A stretch of DNA of 62,357 bases, filler included, from an uncultured Methanosarcinales archaeon (GTDB lineage Archaea > Nanobdellota > Nanobdellia > Woesearchaeales > CAYZNE01): assembly GCA_964405295.1 (NCBI GenBank). It is 4 parts of 4 records of this genome, joined end to end, with 100 filler letters (N's around TTAATTAATTAA, not from the genome) between each part and the next. Parts side by side here need not be neighbours in the genome. Positions count along the whole stretch, not along the records: positions 52,135 to 62,357 come from CAYONI010000016.1; 3 more parts are not named here. One strand, written 5' to 3'. Both the position numbers and the translations under genes were made by a program. Below are positions 9,221-62,357 of the stretch, piece by piece (position 1 is the stretch's first letter; every line of letters begins with the position of its first letter). The notes beneath the pieces were generated by a model, which saw only the letters and a list, made by a program, of their open reading frames with translations, did not search any database and was not told the DNA's origin.

Positions 9221-9843
9221 ATGGCAAAAAAAGTAAAGAAGGTAGGCGTTAAAAAAGTAAAAGGATACCTATACTTCGTAGATAAAAAAGGTAATGTAGC
9301 TAGGGCAACAATGGCTCGTGGTGGTAAGGTAAAAGGAAAAAAGAAAATTGAAGTTGTGGCAAAAGTAAGTGTTAAAAAAGAAAAAGGATACCTATACTTC
9401 ATAGACAAACAAGGCGACATTTCTTGTGCTAAAATGGCACGTGGCGGTCATAAGAAAAAGAAAAAGAAAGTAGTTAAGAAAAAGGCTGTTAAAAAGAAGA
9501 AAAAAGTAGTTAAGAGAAAAGCTACTAAAAAGAAAGTAGTTAAGAAAAAGAAAAAAGTTGTAAAGAAGAAAGCTACTAAAAAGAAGAAAAAAGTAGTTAA
9601 GAGAAAAGCTACTAAAAAGAAAGTAGTTAAGNNNNNNNNNNNNNNNNNNNNNNNNNNNNNNNNNNNNNNNNNNNNNNNNNNNNNNNNNNNNNNNNNNNNN
9701 NNNNNNNNNNNNNNNNNNNNNNNNNNNNNNNTAAAAAGAAGAAAAAAGTAGTTAAGAGAAAAGCTACTAAAAAGAAAGTAGTTAAGAAAAAGAAAAAAGT
9801 TGTAAAGAAAAAAGCTACTAAAAAGAAAAAGAAAAGAAGATAA
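9221..9843 (+). CDS. Highly basic protein: duplicated N-terminal module plus histone H1-like Lys-rich tail (spans an assembly gap)
   Basis: Two copies of K(V/E)KGYLYF(V/I)DKxG...A(T/K)MARGG, then KKKVVKRKATKKK repeats; after the gap the repeat frame runs from 9733 to TAA at 9841-9843. Confidence 0.75.
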
Positions 9844-20514: not shown

Positions 20515-20613
20515 NNNNNNNNNNNNNNNNNNNNNNNNNNNNNNNNNNNNNNNNNNNNTTAATTAATTAANNNNNNNNNNNNNNNNNNNNNNNNNNNNNN
20601 NNNNNNNNNNNNN
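20515..20613. other. Artificial contig linker
   Basis: N-run, TTAATTAATTAA (stops in all six frames) at 20559-20570, N-run. Confidence 0.97.
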
Positions 20614-21032
20614 NGCCACAAATCTCTAATATCAAATATTACTTTTTTATTAAAACATTTTGAAATATAGAAAAGAGGTATTGCTGAAAATAATGGTGGT
20701 GATGAGATAAAAACAATATCAGCCTTAGCAATAATTGGGAATGAAAATAATGATGAAAAAGTAAAAGAAAGGTAATTAATTAACCTTTTAATAATTCCTT
20801 CATTCTTCATTGGTATTTCTGCAAATCTATATACTTGAACACCATTTATCTTTTCTTTTTTCCAGAACCAATTGTAACCTTTTACTAATTTTCCAGTTGG
20901 ATAATTAGGCTGGCCTGTAATTACATTTACATCCCAATTTTTCTTTACAAAATACTCTGCAAAAGCAGACAATCTTTTTGCAGGAGGATTATTCAACGGC
21001 TTATAATACTGGTTTACAAATGTAATTCTCAT
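20614..21032 (-). CDS. Glycosyltransferase family 4, N-terminal part (truncated by contig end)
   Basis: NQYYKP, VITGQPNYP, RLINYLSF, SSPPLF, FDIRDLW. Confidence 0.88.
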
Positions 21033-37316: not shown

Positions 37317-37416
37317 NNNNNNNNNNNNNNNNNNNNNNNNNNNNNNNNNNNNNNNNNNNNTTAATTAATTAANNNNNNNNNNNNNNNNNNNNNNNNNNNN
37401 NNNNNNNNNNNNNNNN
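37317..37416. other. Artificial contig linker
   Basis: N-run, TTAATTAATTAA at 37361-37372, N-run. Confidence 0.97.
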
Positions 37417-52034: not shown

Positions 52035-52134
52035 NNNNNNNNNNNNNNNNNNNNNNNNNNNNNNNNNNNNNNNNNNNNTTAATTAATTAANNNNNNNNNN
52101 NNNNNNNNNNNNNNNNNNNNNNNNNNNNNNNNNN
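52035..52134. other. Artificial contig linker
   Basis: N-run, TTAATTAATTAA at 52079-52090, N-run. Confidence 0.97.
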
Positions 52135-52150
52135 ATTTGATATGCAATCC

Positions 52151-52187
52151 ATAATAATTTACAATTAAAAATGTTACAACGAGTGAA
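52151..52187 (+). repeat. Dispersed element, left half only (copy F)
   Basis: ataataatttacaattaaaaatgttacaacgagtgaa matches 61141-61177 ataacaagttacagttaaaagtgttacaccgagtgaa. Confidence 0.7.
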
Positions 52188-52190
52188 TTC

Positions 52191-52547
52191 ATGAAAGAAG
52201 TTGCGATCCAAGAGGCTAAAAGAAATATCGGGAAAAGTTTTAGTGTTATGATTGATCGTCCTTTTGGATCATCTCACCCTAAACATCCGAATATAATCTA
52301 TCCAATCAATTATGGATACATACCTGGGCTTATTGGTGGTGATCAAGAAGAACAAGATGTATACGTTATTGATTCTCAAGAGCAATCTAAAGTATTAAAT
52401 GTAACAATTATTGCTGTGATCTATCGTCAAGATGATGTTGAGACAAAATGGGTTGGTGTTGTTGATCATACAAAACATTATACAAATCAGGAGATAATGG
52501 ATATTGTTCATTTTCAAGAACAGTATTATACTTCGCAAATAATTTGA
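52191..52547 (+). CDS. Short family I inorganic pyrophosphatase-like protein
   Basis: IDRPFGSSHP, YPINYGYIPG, GDQEEQDVY, DDVETKWV. Confidence 0.85.
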   Translation: MKEVAIQEAKRNIGKSFSVMIDRPFGSSHPKHPNIIYPINYGYIPGLIGGDQEEQDVYVIDSQEQSKVLNVTIIAVIYRQDDVETKWVGVVDHTKHYTNQEIMDIVHFQEQYYTSQII

Positions 52548-52643
52548 AAACACCATATTGAACAATAATAGGACTTCAATAATTATTGCTTAAAAAATTA
52601 TTTATAAAAAAAATTATTAGCTTCGATTTTTAAGGATTAATTG

Positions 52644-52735
52644 ATATACAATAGGTAACGTTTTATCAACTATAAGTGTTATAACGAGGCGTACCATAAA
52701 TAGTTGGAACTAATGATACGCATCGCAAAACAAAG
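52644..52735 (+). repeat. Dispersed element, full copy A
   Basis: tcaactataagtgttataacgag...cataaatagttggaactaatgata...aacaaag. Confidence 0.75.
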
Positions 52736-52781
52736 CCTTTATTAGCTTACATTTTAGTACCTTTTGGTATAATTCAATAAA

Positions 52782-52976
52782 CTATGACTTGTAGATAAAG
52801 ACTTCCGCTATTTCTGTATCTAAGATTTCTGCAATTTTAAATGCTAAAACCAAACTTGGAGAATATTTGTTTTTTTCAATTGCATTAATAGTTTGTCTTG
52901 TGCAATCTGTTAAGTTTGCCAACTCTTCCTGAGTCATTTCTTTACGTGCCCTTAAGTATTTGATATTATTTTTCAT
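52782..52976 (-). CDS. Small XRE/Cro HTH regulator
   Basis: MKNNIKYLR...MTQEELA...TRQTINAIEKNKYSPSLVLAFKIA; probable start 52976. Confidence 0.92.
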   Translation of the reverse strand: MKNNIKYLRARKEMTQEELANLTDCTRQTINAIEKNKYSPSLVLAFKIAEILDTEIAEVFIYKS

Positions 52977-52977
52977 A

Positions 52978-53403
52978 TTAATTCTCACGCTTGTAGAAAT
53001 ACACATGAATTGAAGCGGTAATGAAATAACCAAATGAAAATGTAGAGTATGCAATAAACCAAGCCCAAGATACGTTCATCGAACCTTCATCTCTATAAAT
53101 ATTAAACAATATAATTGAAAGTAGAAATACGTAAATCAACGAAATGACCAAACCTATGGTAGATGATTTTTTTTGTATAAGATAGTCTCTCTCATCAATC
53201 ACATTGCTTTTTTTATTTGTAAGTAGCAGCATTAAAGCAAAAGAAAGCATTGCAGTAAAAATAACGACTGCATTGATAACAATAAATATTTTTTTCGTTA
53301 AAAAATCTTCTGGACCGATAAATGCAAAGAAAATGACTAAAAAAGCAAATAGAATTCCAAATATAATACTTGTAGCAAAAGATCTAGCGTATGAAACATT
53401 CAT
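52978..53403 (-). CDS. DUF2178-like membrane protein
   Basis: Four TM helices, IDERDYLI motif, GAGGTGG RBS; paired with the XRE gene. Confidence 0.75.
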   Translation of the reverse strand: MNVSYARSFATSIIFGILFAFLVIFFAFIGPEDFLTKKIFIVINAVVIFTAMLSFALMLLLTNKKSNVIDERDYLIQKKSSTIGLVISLIYVFLLSIILFNIYRDEGSMNVSWAWFIAYSTFSFGYFITASIHVYFYKREN

Positions 53404-53444
53404 ATAACCACCTCTAATATTAATATATACCATTTTATATAGAA

Positions 53445-53462
53445 TGTAAAATATATTTTACA
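53445..53462. promoter_or_regulatory. Palindromic operator, probably for XRE autoregulation
   Basis: Perfect 18-bp palindrome TGTAAAATATATTTTACA upstream of the DUF2178-XRE operon. Confidence 0.6.
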
Positions 53463-53676
53463 AAATGTAAAAAAAACCAGATAAATTTTACCTTTTTTGG
53501 CTTGTTATAGTTTGCAATGCTACTAATGAACTTTAAAGTAAAGTAAGTTAAAAGTCATTATTTTTATAAATTTACCGATTAAAAGATCTAGATAATTTGG
53601 ATTAGAATAGTTTAGATTATGCATAAAATAGTATGAACTAAGTCTTTATATTAAGAAGAAAGAAAGATGATTATGC

Positions 53677-53766
53677 TATAAATATAATAAGAAGTTACAA
53701 CTAAAAATGTTATAATGAAACGTATCACAAATAGTTGCAACTAATGATATGAAATGTATAACAAAG
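53677..53766 (+). repeat. Dispersed element, full copy B
   Basis: aagttacaactaaaaatgttata...atcacaaatagttgcaactaatgata...tataacaaag. Confidence 0.8.
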
Positions 53767-53845
53767 CTATTTGCTATCTGGTAGAATATGATATGCTATG
53801 AATTATTTTATACTGAAAAAGTAACAATGTGGAAGGAGTGTTTGT

Positions 53846-54127
53846 ATGAAATATTTAATTATTTACCTTTTGTTTATTAACATTGTATCTTTTTTTATCT
53901 ATGGTCTTGATAAAAATAAAGCCAAAAAAGGGAAATGGAGAATCAAAGAAAGTACTTTGCTTTTTTTCTCATTATTAGGTGGTGGGTTAGGATCGTTTTT
54001 AGGAATGCAAATATACAGACATAAAACACAAAAAATGAAATTTAAATTTGGCGTTCCATTTTTAACGATTGTATTTTTAGTGATTTTGTACCTTGTAAAT
54101 CACTATACAACTTTAATAAACCTATAA
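53846..54127 (+). CDS. DUF1294 family membrane protein
   Basis: YGLDKNKAKKGKWRIKESTL...GGGLG...RHKTQK. Confidence 0.92.
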   Translation: MKYLIIYLLFINIVSFFIYGLDKNKAKKGKWRIKESTLLFFSLLGGGLGSFLGMQIYRHKTQKMKFKFGVPFLTIVFLVILYLVNHYTTLINL

Positions 54128-54150
54128 AAAAAACAATCTTTCGATTGTTT

Positions 54151-54609
54151 TTATTTTGTGAATATTTCTGAAACTTTGTTTCTGACCTTTTCACTTGTTA
54201 ATAGAATAAGCATTAATGGTAGCAAAATAAATTCAAATATCATCCCTATTCCAGGAACAATATTTGCTCCTAAGAAAGAATCACCTAAGTCAGTTATATA
54301 GACTATTAAGACAACTGCAAAATACACTAATAATGCGGCGTAAATCAGTCTAGACATGTATTTTTTAGTAAAAAATACTGATGCAAGATAAATACTGACG
54401 AATACAATTGCAATAACAAAATAAGTGTTACCGTCTTCAGTGTCAAGGAACTTGATACCCCCATCTCCAATAAAGGTTTTTAGAATATAAACAGGCATTA
54501 AATAAGTAACTAAGTATAAAACAGCCAAAGCGGTTTGTAGCATACTTGTAACAAAGTATCCGATTTCTCCTTTTAGCAAGATTTTCCCATTAAATTTAAA
54601 ATTTTCCAT
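54151..54609 (-). CDS. Membrane protein
   Basis: Four TM helices, AGGAGG RBS. Confidence 0.75.
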   Translation of the reverse strand: MENFKFNGKILLKGEIGYFVTSMLQTALAVLYLVTYLMPVYILKTFIGDGGIKFLDTEDGNTYFVIAIVFVSIYLASVFFTKKYMSRLIYAALLVYFAVVLIVYITDLGDSFLGANIVPGIGMIFEFILLPLMLILLTSEKVRNKVSEIFTK

Positions 54610-54795
54610 ATTTTTCTCCTCCTTGTTTTTTGCTCCTTAATTATATACTTTAAGGGATGAAAAAACAAATAATAAAAGATTATTCTTATTTCATATTCAT
54701 TCATTTGTTGAATCAAACTCTAAATAAAGAATAAATCAAGTTCTATGGGTCCATATTAAGTGCAATTACAGCTTTTAATACAGCTATAACTTAAT

Positions 54796-55216
54796 TTAGT
54801 ATCTGTTGTTTTTCAAGATTTCAAACTATTCTCAACTACTATAAATGATAATGTAACTAGTGGCGAAAGAGAAAATGACGAAAAAACCCTTGAATCTTTA
54901 GCTCAAGCTAGATTGAAGGCACGAATAGAAAAATTAGAAAACGGTATTGATACTTATCTTTATTCAAATTTTGGTGAACAAGGTGGAGAAGTTCAAAAAT
55001 TACTATAGCAAGAGCGTTATATAAAGACACTCCTTTAGTTATTCTTGACGACTCAAACATCTTAACAGAGTGTCATCATGTAGATTTTGTGACGGTATAA
55101 TTGTATTTGGTAAAGGTGAAATAACTCAGTCAGGGAAACATTATGAATTATTATGCAGCACTAATGGTTTATATTATAATATGTGGTCTGCGCAAGCTAA
55201 ATATTATAATACATAA
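54796..55216 (+). pseudogene. Degraded 3' part of an ABC exporter ATPase domain
   Basis: SVVFQDFKLFSTTINDNV...LENGIDTYL...GGEVQK, then a frameshift to IARALYKDTPLVILD, then RFCDGIIVFGKGEITQSGKHYELL...GLYYNMWSAQAKYY; no 5' part. Confidence 0.8.
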
Positions 55217-55406
55217 AACACAGATAGAAGAAATCACCAAGAACCATAATTTAAGGTGGCTATTAATTATACGAATAATCGATTAAATATTTTATAATGA
55301 TATTTCTTGAATATAAATATGTTATAATAAGTATGAAATAATTTAGCAAAATAGATTTCAAAACTCAACAAGTATTTACATATATTTCTAGAAGGAGGTT
55401 GTTCAT

Positions 55407-55577
55407 ATGTCGGGAGATACAAAAAGAATTTTATTAGCCATTCTTAGTTTATTTGTCCCAATTATCGGAATCATCTTATTTTTCTTATATACGCCAAAAA
55501 AAGATGCAAGATTATTTGGTTTGCTTGGATTAATAAGTATTATTTTTTGGGGATTTGGTGGACTTAATTTATTCTAA
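55407..55577 (+). CDS. Small two-TM membrane protein (56 aa, not in the ORF track)
   Basis: AAGGAGGT RBS; MSGDTKRILLAILSLFVPIIGIILFFLY...; followed by a terminator-like hairpin. Confidence 0.75.
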   Translation: MSGDTKRILLAILSLFVPIIGIILFFLYTPKKDARLFGLLGLISIIFWGFGGLNLF

Positions 55578-55593
55578 ATAAGTGTATTAAGAC

Positions 55594-55630
55594 AAAAGGC
55601 CATACTATTCCGAAAATAGTGCGGTTTTTT
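55594..55630 (+). terminator. Intrinsic terminator
   Basis: Imperfect hairpin gcc-atactatt-ccgaa-aatagtg-cggt followed by a T-run. Confidence 0.55.
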
Positions 55631-55664
55631 AATTTTTGATTCTGGACTGGTATGAAAATTTGTT

Positions 55665-55683
55665 CAGAAATAGTTGAAACTAA
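55665..55683 (+). repeat. Dispersed element, right half only (copy G)
   Basis: cagaaatagttgaaactaa matches 62157-62175 cacaaatagttgaaactaa. Confidence 0.55.
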
Positions 55684-55874
55684 AGGATCATTTTTTACAT
55701 ATTATTTTGAGATTTCAAGATACGATGAAGCAGTAGTTAATATTTATAAGAAGTATATGAGTTTTTGAGATGCATATGAAATTGATATTTTTTGATAAGG
55801 GCTATGAACTTATTTACTTATTTAGTGTCATTGTAATTAATCAAGTATTAGACGAACAAAACAACAAACATTAA

Positions 55875-55908
55875 AAAAATCACTCTCAGAAATTTGAGAG
55901 TGATTTTT
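55875..55908. terminator. Bidirectional intrinsic terminator
   Basis: aaaaatcactctca-gaaatt-tgagagtgattttt. Confidence 0.8.
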
Positions 55909-55930
55909 ATTTATGTATTATTTTATTGAA

Positions 55931-56368
55931 TTACTGTACCACTGAAGTTTTAAATATGTCAACAAGTCGAATATCTTGTTCATATATTTTAGTTCCATCA
56001 ACATTATAAATGAAGTCATCATTTACAATAATAGTATTTCTACTTGCTATATATTTATTAAATTCAGGTAAGAATTGAATCATATCATATTCAAGAGGAA
56101 TTACAACTGTTAAGTCCGTTGTCATTACCCCTGTATTACCATTAATAGTAACGATATAATGATTTGTTTCTTCTAAGTAATTAATGCTGTCAAATAACAA
56201 ATCATTTTTAACATCCATAAATGCATATTTAACAATTCCATGATAACTATCCCAATCAAATCCACCTAATACTTCAAATTCGTTTGTATCTACTAATTTG
56301 TAAGGGCCACCAACGGTGTTACTAACTAATAGGAAGTCTCCTTTGAAATCAGCAATATCACCAATATA
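55931..56368 (-). pseudogene. 5'-truncated beta-repeat (WG-like) protein fragment
   Basis: Frame stays open upstream of the 56218 start until an in-frame TAA near 56370; GVMTTDLTVVIPLEYD motif. Confidence 0.45.
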
Positions 56369-56540
56369 TTATTTTTTGATTTTCATTTCATTTAAAAAAA
56401 ATAGGTAATTATTGATATTTCTATATTAAGATTGAGGAATCAAATATATTAATGAAAAAAAATAAAATAAAATTTATCCAATAAAAATACAAAATCCTAC
56501 GTATAATATATGAACCATAAAAATAAGGAGGGCTTATATT

Positions 56541-57395
56541 ATGAAAAAATTATTATTAGGAATATTTGCAATAACTATGGCTATAGGCGTTGTAGCTTGT
56601 GGGAATATAAATGAAATGGAATCTGCAGGAGTTTACGTAGCTGTAGATATTAATCCATCAATTGAATTCATAGTTGATGAAGACGACAATGTTGAATCAT
56701 TTAATTTCACAAATGAAGATGCATTAATTTTATGTGGTGACATTGATTTTATCGGTATGAATATCGAGGAAGCGGTTGAATTATTTGTAGAACTTGCCAC
56801 AGAAGCTGGATTCATCGATGTTGATGGTGAAGATAATGCAGTACTTATTACAGTACTTGGTGATGAAGACGACGAGTTAGTTGAAGGAATCAAAGAAAGA
56901 GTTAGAACGCGTATTATACGCTACATGGCTATGCATTATATTAATGGACAAGTATTAATAGAAGAGTTTACTCAAGCGGATTTAGTAGCTCAAGCAAATG
57001 AACTTGGCGTAACTCCAGGAAAACTTAAATTAGCTTTGCTAGCACAAACAGTTGATGAAGAATTAGCGCTTGACGATGCAATTGAAATGACGGTAAAAGA
57101 CTTATTTGCATCAGTTAAAACACAACATCAAGCAAATATAGCAGAATTAACTGAAGAAGAACTTACATTAAGATTAGCTCAAAAAGAAGTTTTAATGACA
57201 CTATTTAGAGCTAAATTAACCGAACGTGTTCAAAATAAACCAGTACTTGCTGAAGTGCAAATTCAAGCAAGAGTTGAAGTAATTAGATCTCAAATTTCAA
57301 CTCAAACAAGACAATCTTGGGAAGAAAGATTAGTCGAGTGGAGAGTGGCTCTAGAACAAAGGCAACTCGAAGCGACACAATCGCAAGATAACTAA
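56541..57395 (+). CDS. Lipoprotein with RsgI-like (anti-sigma-I extracellular) domain
   Basis: Lipobox VVAC; YVAVDINPSIEF...N.DA; GVTPGKL. Confidence 0.8.
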   Translation: MKKLLLGIFAITMAIGVVACGNINEMESAGVYVAVDINPSIEFIVDEDDNVESFNFTNEDALILCGDIDFIGMNIEEAVELFVELATEAGFIDVDGEDNAVLITVLGDEDDELVEGIKERVRTRIIRYMAMHYINGQVLIEEFTQADLVAQANELGVTPGKLKLALLAQTVDEELALDDAIEMTVKDLFASVKTQHQANIAELTEEELTLRLAQKEVLMTLFRAKLTERVQNKPVLAEVQIQARVEVIRSQISTQTRQSWEERLVEWRVALEQRQLEATQSQDN

Positions 57396-57414
57396 ACACT
57401 TTTTCACTATTCTT

Positions 57415-57441
57415 GTTAGGCGGGTTCTTTTCCTGCCTAAC
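57415..57441 (+). terminator. Intrinsic terminator
   Basis: gttaggcggg-ttctttt-cctgcctaac followed by T-rich sequence. Confidence 0.7.
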
Positions 57442-57691
57442 TATACTTTTTGTTTTTACTAAACTTATTTCTCGTGTTGAAATTGTTTTGAAAGGTCATT
57501 GATTAGCAGAAGACATTATGCAAGATACTTATTTAAAAGCATTAAGCAAGATTCTCACATACAAACGACAAGCTTATTCTAAATCACGGCTTGTTATGAT
57601 TGGAAAAAACTTGACAATCATGAATAAAACAATTTGAATTATTTTTAGAAAATATGCTACTGATTTTATATATATGTAGAGGAGTGAAAAT

Positions 57692-58273
57692 ATGTATAAT
57701 GAAGAAATAGAACTTAGTATCAATACACAACTTGAATTAATAGGAACTGCCAGAGATATGCATGAGGCAATTGGCGAACATAGTATGAGGGTTAGTAATT
57801 TAGCGGTAAAGTTAGGACATGAATTAGACTTAAATAACGAAGAAATGACTACATTAAGAATTGGATCATATTTTCATGATGTTGGAAAAATGTATGTTTC
57901 GAAAGATATACTAAATTCAACTAACAAACTTACAAAAATAGAACGAAAAAAAATACAAAATCATCCACTTGTCGGAGCTAGGTGTTTTTCAAAAAATGAT
58001 GATTTTTTGAAGATATCAGAAATTATTTCGCTTCACCATGAAAGAATTGATGGAGAAGGATATCCATACGGATTACATGGCAGCCTAATTCCAAAACTTG
58101 TAAAAATAGTAAGTATTTGTGATTCATATGATGCCATGATTGATAAACGCTCATATCGACAACAACCACTTAGTGAAGAAGAGGCTTTATGTGAATTAAT
58201 AAGACATAGTGGAACTCAGTTTGACGCGGTATTAGTTGAAATTTTTGTAGAAATGATTAGAAACAAAAATTAG
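57692..58273 (+). CDS. Stand-alone HD-GYP phosphodiesterase
   Basis: HSMRV, HDVGK, HHERIDGEGYPYGL, CDSYDAM, SGTQFD. Confidence 0.93.
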   Translation: MYNEEIELSINTQLELIGTARDMHEAIGEHSMRVSNLAVKLGHELDLNNEEMTTLRIGSYFHDVGKMYVSKDILNSTNKLTKIERKKIQNHPLVGARCFSKNDDFLKISEIISLHHERIDGEGYPYGLHGSLIPKLVKIVSICDSYDAMIDKRSYRQQPLSEEEALCELIRHSGTQFDAVLVEIFVEMIRNKN

Positions 58274-58507
58274 ATATTTTACTTAGAACTTTAAGTATGC
58301 CAACGTGTAAGATTAACTCATTAACACATCAATGGAATGCAGTATACTATAATGATACTTGATATCACTTGGATATTACATAGGATGTTTCTGTCACGAG
58401 CGACGGATCAAACATACTTACTCACGACTATTTCTTACTTACTAGTTCTCAGTTAGCAACACTTGATACTTCAAAATCTCATACATATTATACGAGGAGG
58501 AAAATAG

Positions 58508-58900
58508 ATGAAACGGAATTTATTAATGGTAATGTTAGTAACACTTGTCATATTTTTGACTGGTTGTGTCTCAGTAAATCAAATTAAAGATAATTTTGCT
58601 GATGCAGGATACGTTTATTCGGAGACTGCGAGCAGTTATATAAGCAACTTATTGGAAGGCTTTGATGAAGAAGAAGTCTCTGTCGATGCATACGTATTTA
58701 GTAATGGTATTCGTGTTGCTGTTGTGCTTGAATTTAATAGTACAAAGGAAATGAATGATGAATTGGAAAGTAATGAGGATCTTCAAGCTTTAATTGGTGA
58801 TTTGACAGAAAAAGAATTAATCCGTGGCAATATGCTTTTGATTCCAATTGGAATTACAACTGATGCCAAAGATGAAATGATTTCAATTTTTAATGATTGA
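58508..58900 (+). CDS. Lipoprotein
   Basis: Lipobox LTGC, GAGGAGG RBS. Confidence 0.8.
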   Translation: MKRNLLMVMLVTLVIFLTGCVSVNQIKDNFADAGYVYSETASSYISNLLEGFDEEEVSVDAYVFSNGIRVAVVLEFNSTKEMNDELESNEDLQALIGDLTEKELIRGNMLLIPIGITTDAKDEMISIFND

Positions 58901-58930
58901 AATAAAATATAAAACAAGGAGGAAATTATT

Positions 58931-59281
58931 ATGCTATTATCAATTGCACATATATTGGTTGCATTATTAGTATTAGTTATGTTGTACTTTGCTTTTTTTA
59001 AAACTAGTAAGTTGGGTGCGTTATCTGCCTTTACTGTACTTGCATCAATTATGTTAGTTATGTTTTTAAATGGATTTGCCAGTTTAATTAGCAATGTAGG
59101 TTTTTTAGATTTTTTGGTAAAAATATTTAATGGAGTTTCTGGACTTATTGTGTTTGCGGAACTTATTATATTAGTAATTTTGACATTTTTTAGTAAATTC
59201 AAAACAAAAGATGCTTTTTTGAAATGGTCGATTGTTGCGTATGTAGTACTTGTATTGCTTATTGAATTTGGTATTTTTTAA
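58931..59281 (+). CDS. Membrane protein
   Basis: Four TM helices, AGGAGG RBS. Confidence 0.75.
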   Translation: MLLSIAHILVALLVLVMLYFAFFKTSKLGALSAFTVLASIMLVMFLNGFASLISNVGFLDFLVKIFNGVSGLIVFAELIILVILTFFSKFKTKDAFLKWSIVAYVVLVLLIEFGIF

Positions 59282-59330
59282 GAATACTGGTTTTGCAAAA
59301 AATTAAATTATACTTAGTACAATTTCAAAG

Positions 59331-59455
59331 TATAATATGTATACAATAATAAGTTCCAATTAAAACTGATACGTAGAGTTATATCATAAATATTTGGAAC
59401 TAATGTTATAAACCGTATAACAAAGAGAAATAGCACATATTTCTCTTTGTTTTTT
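59331..59455 (+). repeat. Dispersed element, full copy C, with -10 box and terminator
   Basis: TATAAT at 59331; AGTTCCAA/TTGGAACT, TGATA/TATCA and TGTTATA/TATAACA stems; aacaaagagaaat/atttctctttgtt hairpin plus T-run. Confidence 0.8.
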
Positions 59456-59794
59456 GCGGAATATTCTTAGTTGCGTTTTTTCAGATAATTAGATGGGTTA
59501 TTATGGTTTGTCCATCTTTGTATTAATAAAGTATTATACAGATAATCAAAAACTCTACTAATCTGATAAAGCTGTTTTTATTTGTTAAAATAACTATAAA
59601 ATATAATAAATATAATGCTATAATAATTAGCGAAGATACCATTGTTTTTTATAGAGCTGACCAAAAAACATTATGTAATGAATTAAAAGTAGTAAAATAA
59701 CATCTAAGTCCTATTGAGCGTAGACTAAAATGAACTTCATGTTCCTTTAAATCTATACCATTTAATAGTAGAATTTAAGCAAGAGGTGATAAAA

Positions 59795-60994
59795 TTGAAA
59801 CTGAATGAAATTGGCGACTTCCTAAAATCGTTAAGGAAATCAAAAGGTTACACACAAGCGAATTTAGCAGAGATGTTAAATGTTTCAAATAAATCAGTTA
59901 GTAAATGGGAAACTGGATCAGGTCTTCCAGAGATGCAAACACTGTTGGAACTAGCTAAAATATATGAGGTTACTGTTGATGAAATTTTGAGAGGTACACG
60001 GAATCAACAGAAAAGCGATGTTAATTTAAAAGAAAGAAAAGAATATTTGATTAAAAATAGAGTGCAATCTTTCTATACTATGACATTAGTTTATTCACTT
60101 GTAACCATGATTGGATTTGTTTTATTATTAATCATTGGAAGTTTCTATGAAAATACAATTATTCTAGCTGCCTTTTTAGCACTTTTTTATTTGACAGCTA
60201 TTGTTATTCAAATAATTAGTATAAAAAACATTTTATTTCAAATTAAAGATAATTCAATGATTGAAAATAATGAATTCTTAATCTATAAAATATGGAATGC
60301 TTGTTTTTGGTTTTTTTCTTTAGTAATCTGCCTAATATGTCTGACATTTACTTATCAAATTAATCCTGATGGACACGTTGACTTCAATGCCTACTTAAAT
60401 AGATTAGTATTTGTTATCAGTGCTCTTTTTGTCTTTATCATTGAAGCATATATCATATTTAGATTAGTTATGAATCACTTTAAATATTATAAGAAACTTT
60501 CACTATTTAAATACTTGGTTTTTGGTATCTTACTCGTTTCTTCAGTTTCCCCATTTATATACCAATCGATAAATCCGCTTTCAGATCCACGAACGGTATA
60601 TATGAGTTTTGAAAAAAGTATTCAACCTGATGGATATGAGAGATTAAGAATTATTGGGATTGTGAGAAATGATCACGAAAATGAGATTTACGAATCAGAT
60701 CAGTATACACTGGTCTTAGAGACTGGAGATTTAGAATATATTGATTCAAATGGCAATACAGAAGTAATGTCTTCAGAAACATATGAATTGATGAATAATA
60801 TTTATTACATTAAAGATATTGAATTCAATGATAACATTGCTAAGACTGCATGGCGTACATCAAATGACTTAATTGAGCTAGACTATTATTTAGAATTATT
60901 TGCTTATAGTTTAATGTTAAGTGTTGTTTTACTTTCAAGTGGATTTGGTATATATTCTGTAATTAAGAAAAATAAAATGTCTAACCATAAATAG
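59795..60994 (+). CDS. XRE HTH regulator fused to a multi-TM sensor domain
   Basis: LRKSKGYTQANLAEMLNVSNKSVSKWETG, then several TM helices; GAGGTG RBS before TTG at 59795. Confidence 0.88.
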   Translation: MKLNEIGDFLKSLRKSKGYTQANLAEMLNVSNKSVSKWETGSGLPEMQTLLELAKIYEVTVDEILRGTRNQQKSDVNLKERKEYLIKNRVQSFYTMTLVYSLVTMIGFVLLLIIGSFYENTIILAAFLALFYLTAIVIQIISIKNILFQIKDNSMIENNEFLIYKIWNACFWFFSLVICLICLTFTYQINPDGHVDFNAYLNRLVFVISALFVFIIEAYIIFRLVMNHFKYYKKLSLFKYLVFGILLVSSVSPFIYQSINPLSDPRTVYMSFEKSIQPDGYERLRIIGIVRNDHENEIYESDQYTLVLETGDLEYIDSNGNTEVMSSETYELMNNIYYIKDIEFNDNIAKTAWRTSNDLIELDYYLELFAYSLMLSVVLLSSGFGIYSVIKKNKMSNHK

Positions 60995-61125
60995 TTTTAA
61001 TGCTGGAAATTCCTACTTAAAGAAAGCAACAATTAGCATTCATCAAGACATATCTATTACTCATAAAGTTTAAAATTTGTTGTCATTATGATGGGTTGGT
61101 TTGAAAGTAGAGTAGAGGGCGTTTG

Positions 61126-61231
61126 TATAATATACATACAATAACAAGTTACAGTTAAAAGTGTTACACCGAGTGAACTGATAAGATGTTAGTAGACACA
61201 AAGGAAAACATGTGTTTATTAACATTTTTTT
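61126..61231 (+). repeat. Dispersed element, left-half copy D, with -10 box and terminator
   Basis: TATAAT at 61126; left half runs to gagtgaa; 15-bp stem atgttagtagacaca/tgtgtttattaacat plus T-run. Confidence 0.75.
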
Positions 61232-61364
61232 GTATAATTAAAAGAAGGAATTAGATAAATGAGTGTTTAATAAAACTTTCTAATATCTATTGTGTTGTGC
61301 ACACTACTGTGTTATGATTAGTACGAAGACTAATTTTAAAAAAAATGAAAAGAGAATAGATAAT

Positions 61365-61946
61365 ATGAGTGATGCTAAAGGGAAAATTATTATTATAAAC
61401 GGTGTTTCAAGTTCAGGTAAAACAACTTTATCTAAAGGATTACAACAAAAAATGGAAGAGCATTATTTTTGGGTAGCCAATGATACTTTTTGTGATATGT
61501 GTTCTAGTAAGCATTGGAATGAAGATTGGGTTACCAGAATTAATCAAGCTTTGACTGCAATGATTTATTCAGTAAAATCATTTTCTGATTTAGGATTTAA
61601 TGTAATTGTAGATCAAGTGTTCTTAAATAATGCATCACAAGGTAAAATACTTGAGAAATGTATAGAAGTATTACATGATTACCCAGTTCTTTTTGTTCGA
61701 ACTGATTGTTCATTAGAGGAACTAAAAAAAAGAGAAAAAGAGCGAGGAAACAGGAGAATTGGACAAGCTGAATCTCAACTAAAAATTGTTCATAATCATA
61801 ACACTTACGATATTGCAATTGATACTACTAAAAACGACACAGATGAAAATATAAATAAAATAATATTAAAACTAGAGAATATAGAAGATAGAAGAGCATT
61901 TTCAATTTTATACGATAAATTATCTACAACTGGGAAGATTTATTAG
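61365..61946 (+). CDS. Chloramphenicol phosphotransferase (CPT)-like P-loop kinase
   Basis: IIIINGVSSSGKTT, GFNVIVD, LEELKKREKERGNRRIGQAESQ, YDIAIDT. Confidence 0.87.
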   Translation: MSDAKGKIIIINGVSSSGKTTLSKGLQQKMEEHYFWVANDTFCDMCSSKHWNEDWVTRINQALTAMIYSVKSFSDLGFNVIVDQVFLNNASQGKILEKCIEVLHDYPVLFVRTDCSLEELKKREKERGNRRIGQAESQLKIVHNHNTYDIAIDTTKNDTDENINKIILKLENIEDRRAFSILYDKLSTTGKIY

Positions 61947-62106
61947 AATATTGAGTCTGAATAGTTATAATTCTACGTTGAAAAGATGTGGATAGTAATA
62001 TCTTTCAACACGCAATTATTTATATTTAAAATTAGAATTGTTTGATAAAAAATATATGTTCATGTTGGATTGGTATGGAATTTGAACAGTTGGTAGTTAA
62101 ACAGTC

Positions 62107-62196
62107 ATATACATACAGTAACAAGTTGCAACCAACAATATTACACCGAGTTGAATCACAAATAGTTGAAACTAACGATATACATAGAGTAACAAG
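62107..62196 (+). repeat. Dispersed element, full copy E
   Basis: atatacatacagtaacaagttgcaacc...ttacaccgag...atcacaaatagttgaaactaacgata...taacaag. Confidence 0.8.
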
Positions 62197-62311
62197 GACA
62201 TTTTATTTATTTGAATATAGTTTATCTATGTAAAAACTTATAACATTTTCATTACTGCGTTCATATAAGCATTTATATATGGTAATATACTTATTAGTAT
62301 GGAGGATATAT

Positions 62312-62357
62312 ATGCGTATTTGCTTGGTTGATGATGATTCTACACAACTTGATTACT
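62312..62357 (+). CDS. Response regulator receiver domain, N-terminus only (cut by window end)
   Basis: GGAGG RBS; MRICLVDDDSTQLDY. Confidence 0.7.
   Translation, partial: MRICLVDDDSTQLDY

Follow-up and report, generated by a model that had tools for sequence, protein, structure and literature searches.

The attachment (att) sites of the staphylococcal cassette chromosome (SCC) have been described as two half-sites arranged about a GA dinucleotide located 6 bp upstream of a TATCATAA core (three alike, one in rlmH; PMC13739063), and the same anatomy is described for the Enterococcus cassette chromosome (ECC; PMC6222049). In staphylococci, CcrAB are reported to excise neighbouring cassettes that are themselves ccr-less (PMC11470126). 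We examined a 62,357 nucleotide stretch of DNA (the window) from GCA_964405295.1, a genome bin assigned to an uncultured archaeon (here G000), in which a palindromic repeat of ∼90 nt recurs between small accessory genes. In this repeat we recognise, with high confidence, the att site of an SCC/ECC-type system in which large serine recombinases target rlmH. The original prediction had read the copies as targets of site-specific recombination that mark off cassette-like modules and have no attC, which the analysis supports, but had considered the system uncharacterised in kind; it instead corresponds to the rlmH-targeted SCC/ECC type.

The window joins four contigs of the bin (C9, C11, C13 and C16) through N spacers at 20515–20614, 37317–37416 and 52035–52134, and the repeat array takes up C16 (window 52135–62357; 10.2 kb; 28% GC). 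Four full copies, all co-oriented on the forward strand and 68–73% alike to the reference, were confirmed at 52646–52741 (GA at 52686), 53677–53772 (GA at 53717), 59336–59431 (GA at 59376) and 62108–62203 (GA at 62148). The last three join a left arm that we term P to a right arm termed P′; in the first the left arm is degenerate (−7 bits) while the core and P′ are intact (58 bits). The two copies reported to keep only their left half were likewise recovered, on the same strand, at 52149–52189 (GA at 52181; P arm 37 bits) and 61139–61173 (GA at 61171; P arm and CGAG, 28 bits). A site matrix trained solely on sites from other genomes found all six of these copies, and gave 19 rows in the whole G000 file (three of them opposite-strand shadows) versus none in the reversed genome. 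The right-half copy proposed at 55665 fared less well: only ∼21 nt are kept (55662–55682, forward strand; 13.1 bits), with no GA, and an equal match arose in 30 of 300 shuffles of the contig, so that it is a possible decayed right-arm remnant that is not established.

Each copy forms a dyad around a GA dinucleotide, followed by the core. The middle of the repeat reads GA-GCCG-TATCACAA-ATAG, corresponding to E-P-Y-H-K-stop, the 3′ end of rlmH, and a 30-codon rlmH tail on another small contig of the bin (C32) terminates in the same core. The att core with its TATCAYAA motif is the 3′ end of rlmH, as in SCC and ECC elements, and the GA is located 6 bp before this core between degenerate inverted-repeat half-sites, matching the SCC anatomy given in PMC13739063. 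Read outward from the GA, the two arms come into register, with a TAGTTGCAACT motif at approximately positions 14–24 on both sides; serine integrases are described as binding an outer (ZD) motif at positions 16–24 (PMC3783163). The GTT-NN-AAC dyads, previously taken as the recombination signal, correspond to these outer binding motifs, with the crossover at the central GA. The arms behave as exchangeable halves, the left one being an rlmH tail (B) or P (also W), and the right one P′, Y or Z.

C16 is probably foreign to the bin and mis-binned. By tetranucleotide likelihood, it and nine other small repeat-flagged contigs lie nearer to Izemoplasma-type loci than to the bin's four largest contigs, whereas C9 and C11 do not. 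The source of C16 resembles a wall-less marine bacterium related to Ca. Izimaplasma HR2, to which one named homologue of the window's RsgI-like protein belongs. Twelve more sites of the same system are present on small Izemoplasma-like contigs of G000 (C12, C32, C36, C40, C51, C57 and C84; weakly on C64 and C66), with none on its large contigs at a 14-bit threshold, and the bin has apparently taken in accessory contigs from a bacterium. Among 40 of G000's own relatives the repeat gave only short matches of 18–24 nt, in four genomes, with rlmH found in seven and PF07508 in two; because C16 looks foreign to the bin, this comparison is uninformative. The layout of the array is real, since a 7,076-nt contig of run X1 covers window positions 55174–62249 without differences; a further locus (L155) is identical to C16 across 6,993 nt and is probably not independent. 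The first copy (52149/52151) is located only ∼14–16 nt from the start of C16, which begins at an assembly edge, and the only rlmH sequence in G000 is the tail, so that an intact rlmH upstream of the array is not visible. A 5.6-kb contig in run X1 reaches ∼4 kb past this start.

The two left-only copies diverge from the others immediately after GAGTGAA, which had been interpreted as a shared recombination breakpoint; the break instead corresponds to the left end of an IS3-family insertion sequence (IS) inserted after CGAG. The arm following GAG in the 61171 copy is conserved in 30 of the 77 genomes of the family of Ca. Izimaplasma HR2. In one of these relatives (G114, locus L117) it is the left terminus of a complete element, 1,352 nt long, that displays the characters of the IS3 family, namely TG...CA terminal repeats, orfA (PF01527) and orfB (NF033516, above cut-off), and that lies inside an att site with CGAG on both sides as a 4-bp target duplication. 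The arm after GAGTGAA had also been weighed as another attB or as an alternative arm of a cassette, readings ruled out by this complete element. The window retains only the left end at 61174–61262 (forward strand; terminal inverted repeat, hairpin and start region, with the transposase genes missing), 83% identical to the first 89 nt of the complete element, and the IS orfB was not found in G000. The left-only copy at 61171 is explained by an IS at the centre of the site. The copy at 52181 is probably IS-derived as well, given its analogy with 61171 and the 6 nt after GAG (52184–52189) that match the start of the IS left end.

Among 20 distinct left ends of this IS type, 12 follow the core in forward and six in reversed orientation, with two in neither arrangement, although the set was gathered with a query starting at the att GA and may be enriched for att-linked copies. 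A sister IS3-type left end (L086, L087, L090, L092 and L095) was att-linked in none of seven cases, and homing seems confined to one IS subgroup. Targeting of palindromic repeats has precedents among IS3 elements (PMC1525189); our literature search found no report of IS3 targeting of att sites.

An exact-pattern search matched two GTDB genomes, one of them Ca. Izimaplasma HR2. Across the 77 genomes of its family, the site is present in 46 (E ≤ 0.001; two seed genomes counted), rlmH in 49 and PF07508 in 17; a pattern scan of viral contigs gave no matches. All 29 of the rlmH loci that could be parsed (of 30) terminate in the core, with 22 running directly into P′, five bearing other arms and two cut short. 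The 135 distinct sites in 34 genomes are built of hybrid halves: B-P′ (32), P-P′ (19), P-other (30), other-P′ (25), P-IS (11) and smaller classes. After removal of TC- and TT-centred rows, neighbouring sites no more than 15 kb apart were on the same strand in 49 of 49 cases, with a median spacing of 3.5 kb, and P-GA-P′ joints near consensus are common in two relatives (G041 and G042). In many relatives P′ is followed by a hairpin that resembles a terminator. We also observed that the third right arm, Z, carries a terminator and may be the native attB flank.

Arrays directly 3′ of an intact rlmH are seen in relatives, though many arrays there are remote from it. Closed or large assemblies carry 7–29 BLAST matches to the site at several loci, usually with no Ccr-like gene, and several array loci per genome are found in single-contig genomes (G111 and G112) as well. 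Ten of 25 B-arm sites are rlmH genes; the other 15, in eight genomes, are detached rlmH tails of 23–66 nt. Such tails serve as left arms far from rlmH at L039, L057, L058, L060, L062, L064, L069, L072, L073, L109, L113, L114 and L204, and at position 97 of C32 in G000. They are often located within ∼50 nt of another gene's stop codon, and two such loci recur between genomes (G111/G112 and G112/G117). In the draft of Ca. Izimaplasma HR2 (G042) there is no rlmH match, although BLAST matches the site 29 times across many contigs.

Modules bounded by these arms can be delimited directly in relatives. One genome (G112) contains a classical element in which rlmH B-GA-P′ and P-GA-Z enclose a type I restriction-modification (RM) system, and another (G070) contains a single gene between B-GA-IS and P-GA-Y. 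Closely related one- or two-gene modules recur in different genomes followed by different next arms. A DUF6933 cassette common to G041, G042 and G070 is 75–95% alike per 40-nt bin up to the GA and 40–68% alike beyond it; among 10 listed pairs in this bin test, two further pairs show the same drop at the GA, one is alike only rightward, and the others are not in register. Relatives carry defence genes among their cargo (type I RM, HerA-DUF4297, PD-T7-5 and TIR), and the 11 proteins of the window gave only HTH matches against PADLOC.

The window contains no recombinase, as originally noted, and neither it nor the bin contains ccrAB or ccrC, so that the array is not an SCC in the strict sense. 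Within the order, a CcrB/C-like recombinase of 521–535 amino acids is encoded at eight loci in six of 158 genomes, one copy being the 529-residue protein of L040 (10332–11918). Against the models for CcrB and CcrC (NF047343 and NF047347; cut-off 900) this protein reaches ∼300 bits, versus 87–151 bits for the other recombinases tested, and its three best plasmid matches are staphylococcal, one being a true CcrB (35%). Four of the eight loci (in G042, G111, G119 and contig C42 of G126) have co-oriented cores within 7–29 kb. Where both ends of a recombinase element were seen, its arms are Y and W rather than P, with a B arm on one side of it and a P′ arm on the other. It is probable that the Ccr-like enzyme acts in trans on this system, and by analogy with staphylococcal CcrAB we infer that it would also move P-armed modules. 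The second arm pair (Y right, W left) is seen in G042 (contig C31, ∼14985 and 39571), in G111 (contig C1, 1164356 and 1201482) and on C36 of G000 (position 353), and the outer motif of W and Y appears to resemble the rlmH arm displaced outward by ∼4 bp.

A recombinase pair in G041 was considered as the cognate enzyme and rejected: it scores 109–151 bits on CcrB, and the same family occurs behind smpB in G081. The pair belongs to a second element family with a Cch-like helicase and DUF960, found in G041 (contig C1, 29–37 kb; L039) and G081 (contig C5; L189), and the location of the G081 copy just behind smpB suggests that this family targets tmRNA.

We are confident, though somewhat less so than of the site itself, in an overall reading in which an rlmH-targeted att system of the SCC/ECC kind accepts module insertions, is served in trans by a Ccr-like enzyme and suffers IS3 damage. 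Circular modules bearing P-GA-P′ would insert at the end of rlmH, or at a detached copy of its tail, to give B-GA-P′...P-GA-x, and repeated insertion would leave a row of P-GA-P′ joints in one orientation, as with the four seen in the window. The enzyme would be supplied by rarer elements that encode the CcrB/C-like recombinase. An IS3-family element could then enter the crossover, duplicating CGAG, and lose its body to produce left-only copies. A broader proposal, which we put forward only tentatively and judge somewhat less likely than its negation, is a distributed, integron-like gene-capture network built on SCC chemistry, in which detached rlmH tails would be movable insertion points from which live arrays of small cassettes start at several loci, rare CcrB-like enzymes would act in trans, a single core would serve two or more arm specificities (P/P′ and W/Y), and a crossover-homing IS3 would parasitise the whole.

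Several results weigh against parts of the overall reading. The GA is central in 84 of 99 sites, a count that is partly circular since the matrices contain GA. A test for flank switching found homology on both sides in none of 104 site pairs (86 of them rlmH–rlmH, three IS pairs, and one pair counted twice) versus two of 42 control gaps, and is non-discriminating. Orthologues in relatives of the window's CPT kinase and of its XRE/DUF2178 gene pair (five loci each) have no att site within 1.5-kb flanks, and Logan contigs of two runs (X1 and X2) contained no clear excision or circle joint. PF07508 and PF00239 have no match in G000, though most of the bacterium's genome is outside the bin. Four of the eight recombinase loci, two of them on short contigs, have no core in the flanks searched, and no P′...P-bounded element encoding its own recombinase was found. 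Distal predicted att sites in staphylococci are reported as not excised (PMC11470126), which weakens the extension of the Ccr-like enzyme to P arms. Two contig joints near the GA (52182>59382 and 53713>61171) were set aside, as their sides extend only 31–32 nt, are 85% alike and may come from other copies. Ends of high-scoring segment pairs fell near the site in both genomes in one of 28 cases, too few to be informative.

The array in the window looks old and partly decayed, because its genes are mostly not att-flanked in relatives. With no recombinase and degenerate sites it is probably largely inactive, and we doubt that it is still mobile.

The same signs of decay fit a different history, in which the sites are real but represent scars: a dead stack of the ends of large SCC-like elements, later filled by accessory genes, with no traffic of small cassettes. 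The degenerate arms, the gene-rich 5.66-kb gap, the IS damage and the lack of att sites around the same genes elsewhere are all as expected of such scars, and the failure of staphylococcal distal sites to be excised agrees with them. The recurrence across genomes of small arm-bounded modules with different next arms, the many near-consensus P-GA-P′ joints in G041 and G042, and the short median spacing between sites speak instead for the movement of small modules, and we regard a purely scar-like origin as a minority possibility, though one to be taken seriously.

Explanations that do not involve serine recombination fare far worse. An integron-like system, with folded single-stranded sites and a tyrosine recombinase, would account for the co-oriented array, and the bin has 14 PF00589 matches. 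The TAACAA motifs of the repeat recall attC ends. No IntI was found among the gene calls of C16, however, and the arms swap at a central GA next to a core that is the end of rlmH. No attC-type hairpin is conserved: fold z-scores range from −0.01 to −3.4 across copies, and only the copy at 59336 folds clearly better than shuffles on both strands. The repeat reaches the gathering score of no Rfam family, the two matches obtained being at chance level. We consider an integron very improbable. A transposable element of the miniature inverted-repeat kind (MITE), a repetitive extragenic palindromic (REP)-like repeat or a regulator-binding palindrome would suit the ∼90-nt length, palindromic core, intergenic position, high copy number and, in many relatives, the terminator-like hairpin after P′. 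Nonetheless, the repeat itself has no fixed ends or target duplication, its only IS end being the tail at 61174, and its hybrid halves joined at GA, strict co-orientation and overlap with the rlmH stop codon speak against such elements; neither random orientation nor placement between housekeeping genes was seen. This explanation, too, we hold to be hardly credible. The rlmH-targeted att system remains the reading that we prefer.

The genes between the sites are those named in the original prediction (pyrophosphatase, HTH_3 (XRE) with DUF2178, DUF1294 and CPT), to which we add RsgI_M, HD-domain and HTH-membrane genes. The module at 52181–52686 contains an inorganic pyrophosphatase-family gene (52191–52547, forward strand, ATG at 52191; PF00719, E = 1.8e-7), and that at 52686–53717 an HTH_3 regulator and a DUF2178 membrane gene, both identified by domain matches (52782–53433, reverse strand). 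The following 5.66-kb module (genes within 53846–59281) has no clear internal site and encodes DUF1294, membrane proteins, gene fragments, an RsgI_M lipoprotein, an HD-domain protein and two small genes. The module at 59376–61171 carries a gene for an HTH_3-membrane protein (59786–60994, forward strand), and that at 61171–62148 a CPT-like kinase gene (61365–61946, forward strand; PF07931, E = 1.4e-36). The IS-end remnant at 61174–61262 displays a −10-like hexamer and a ribosome-binding-like stretch 5′ of the kinase gene, the 6-nt remnant at 52184 adjoins the pyrophosphatase start, and captured genes may draw expression signals from IS ends. A promoter and terminator scan of C16 gave counts at chance level (75 vs 71 and 4 vs 2.5). 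Within the 5.66-kb module, broken gene fragments at 54790–55220 coincide with a region to which many other X1 and X2 contigs align (summed depth up to 64), and similar DNA is present in G069, G112, G062 and G063.

The remaining contigs of the window have features of their own. A stretch of 55 nt is shared, in inverted orientation, by the ends of C9 and C11 (20460–20514 and 37262–37316), and the two contigs may be adjacent in the genome; C9 contains tandem and direct repeats of 103–118 nt at 9239–9834. A single open frame, over 4,800 codons long, fills C13 (37417–51884, reverse strand; 36% GC), with a marginal Viral_helicase1 match (E = 1.7e-4), no PHROG match and a composition unlike the main bin; it possibly encodes a giant phage protein.

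These observations add free-living Bacilli without a cell wall to the hosts of SCCmec-type rlmH cassettes, a system that the literature we found does not describe in them. They offer a model outside pathogens for how recombinase-less cassettes accumulate and how arrays leave the native gene, and the natural arm variants, together with a CcrB-like enzyme, make site recognition and directionality by Ccr proteins testable. In the IS3 family, homing to the crossover of a serine recombinase would represent a novel type of target.

Compared with SCC and SCCmec elements, composite islands and ccr-less tandem cassettes, as described in PMC13739063 and PMC11470126, the system has the same rlmH 3′ target, a crossover at a GA that precedes a TATCAYAA core by 6 bp, arms that are degenerate inverted repeats, cassettes stacked without a recombinase and, in relatives, defence cargo and a CcrB/C-like enzyme. 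It differs in host family, in the score of that enzyme (∼300 bits against the 900-bit CcrB/C cut-off), in the absence of mec genes, in its shorter modules (median 3.5 kb versus the 17–26 kb cassettes given for RP62a) and in having, at several loci remote from rlmH, arrays with detached rlmH tails at their head, as well as an att-homing IS3. ECC elements (PMC6222049) share an att site of ∼50 bp at rlmH with a TATCATAA motif, a dyad in element-derived sites and multiple att sites, but their genomes are described as having fewer than five att matches, mostly near ccrAB, in contrast to the 7–29 matches dispersed here, usually without a Ccr-like gene. The rlmH-inserted islands of other Bacillota (PMC10061031) are likewise large-serine-recombinase elements that end in rlmH-end repeats, sometimes as tandem composites, and carry a DUF927/Cch helicase and DUF960, as does a G041 element; the parts of that report considered here mention neither an Izemoplasma-type host nor dispersed rlmH-tail anchors. 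IS1397, ISKpn1 and ISPsy8, as presented in PMC1525189, are also IS3-family elements with a strong preference for a palindromic host repeat, whereas the target here is a serine-recombinase att crossover, into which the element inserts either way round, duplicating 4 bp. Integrons (IntI/attC) share a co-oriented array of gene modules, but here the sites are double-stranded, GA-centred dyads of serine-recombinase anatomy with no conserved attC fold, and the modules are multi-gene and on both strands. The array in the window, having no ccr, works like the pseudo-SCC composite islands and is not a staphylococcal SCC; what is new is the host family, the dispersed rlmH-tail anchors and the att-homing IS.

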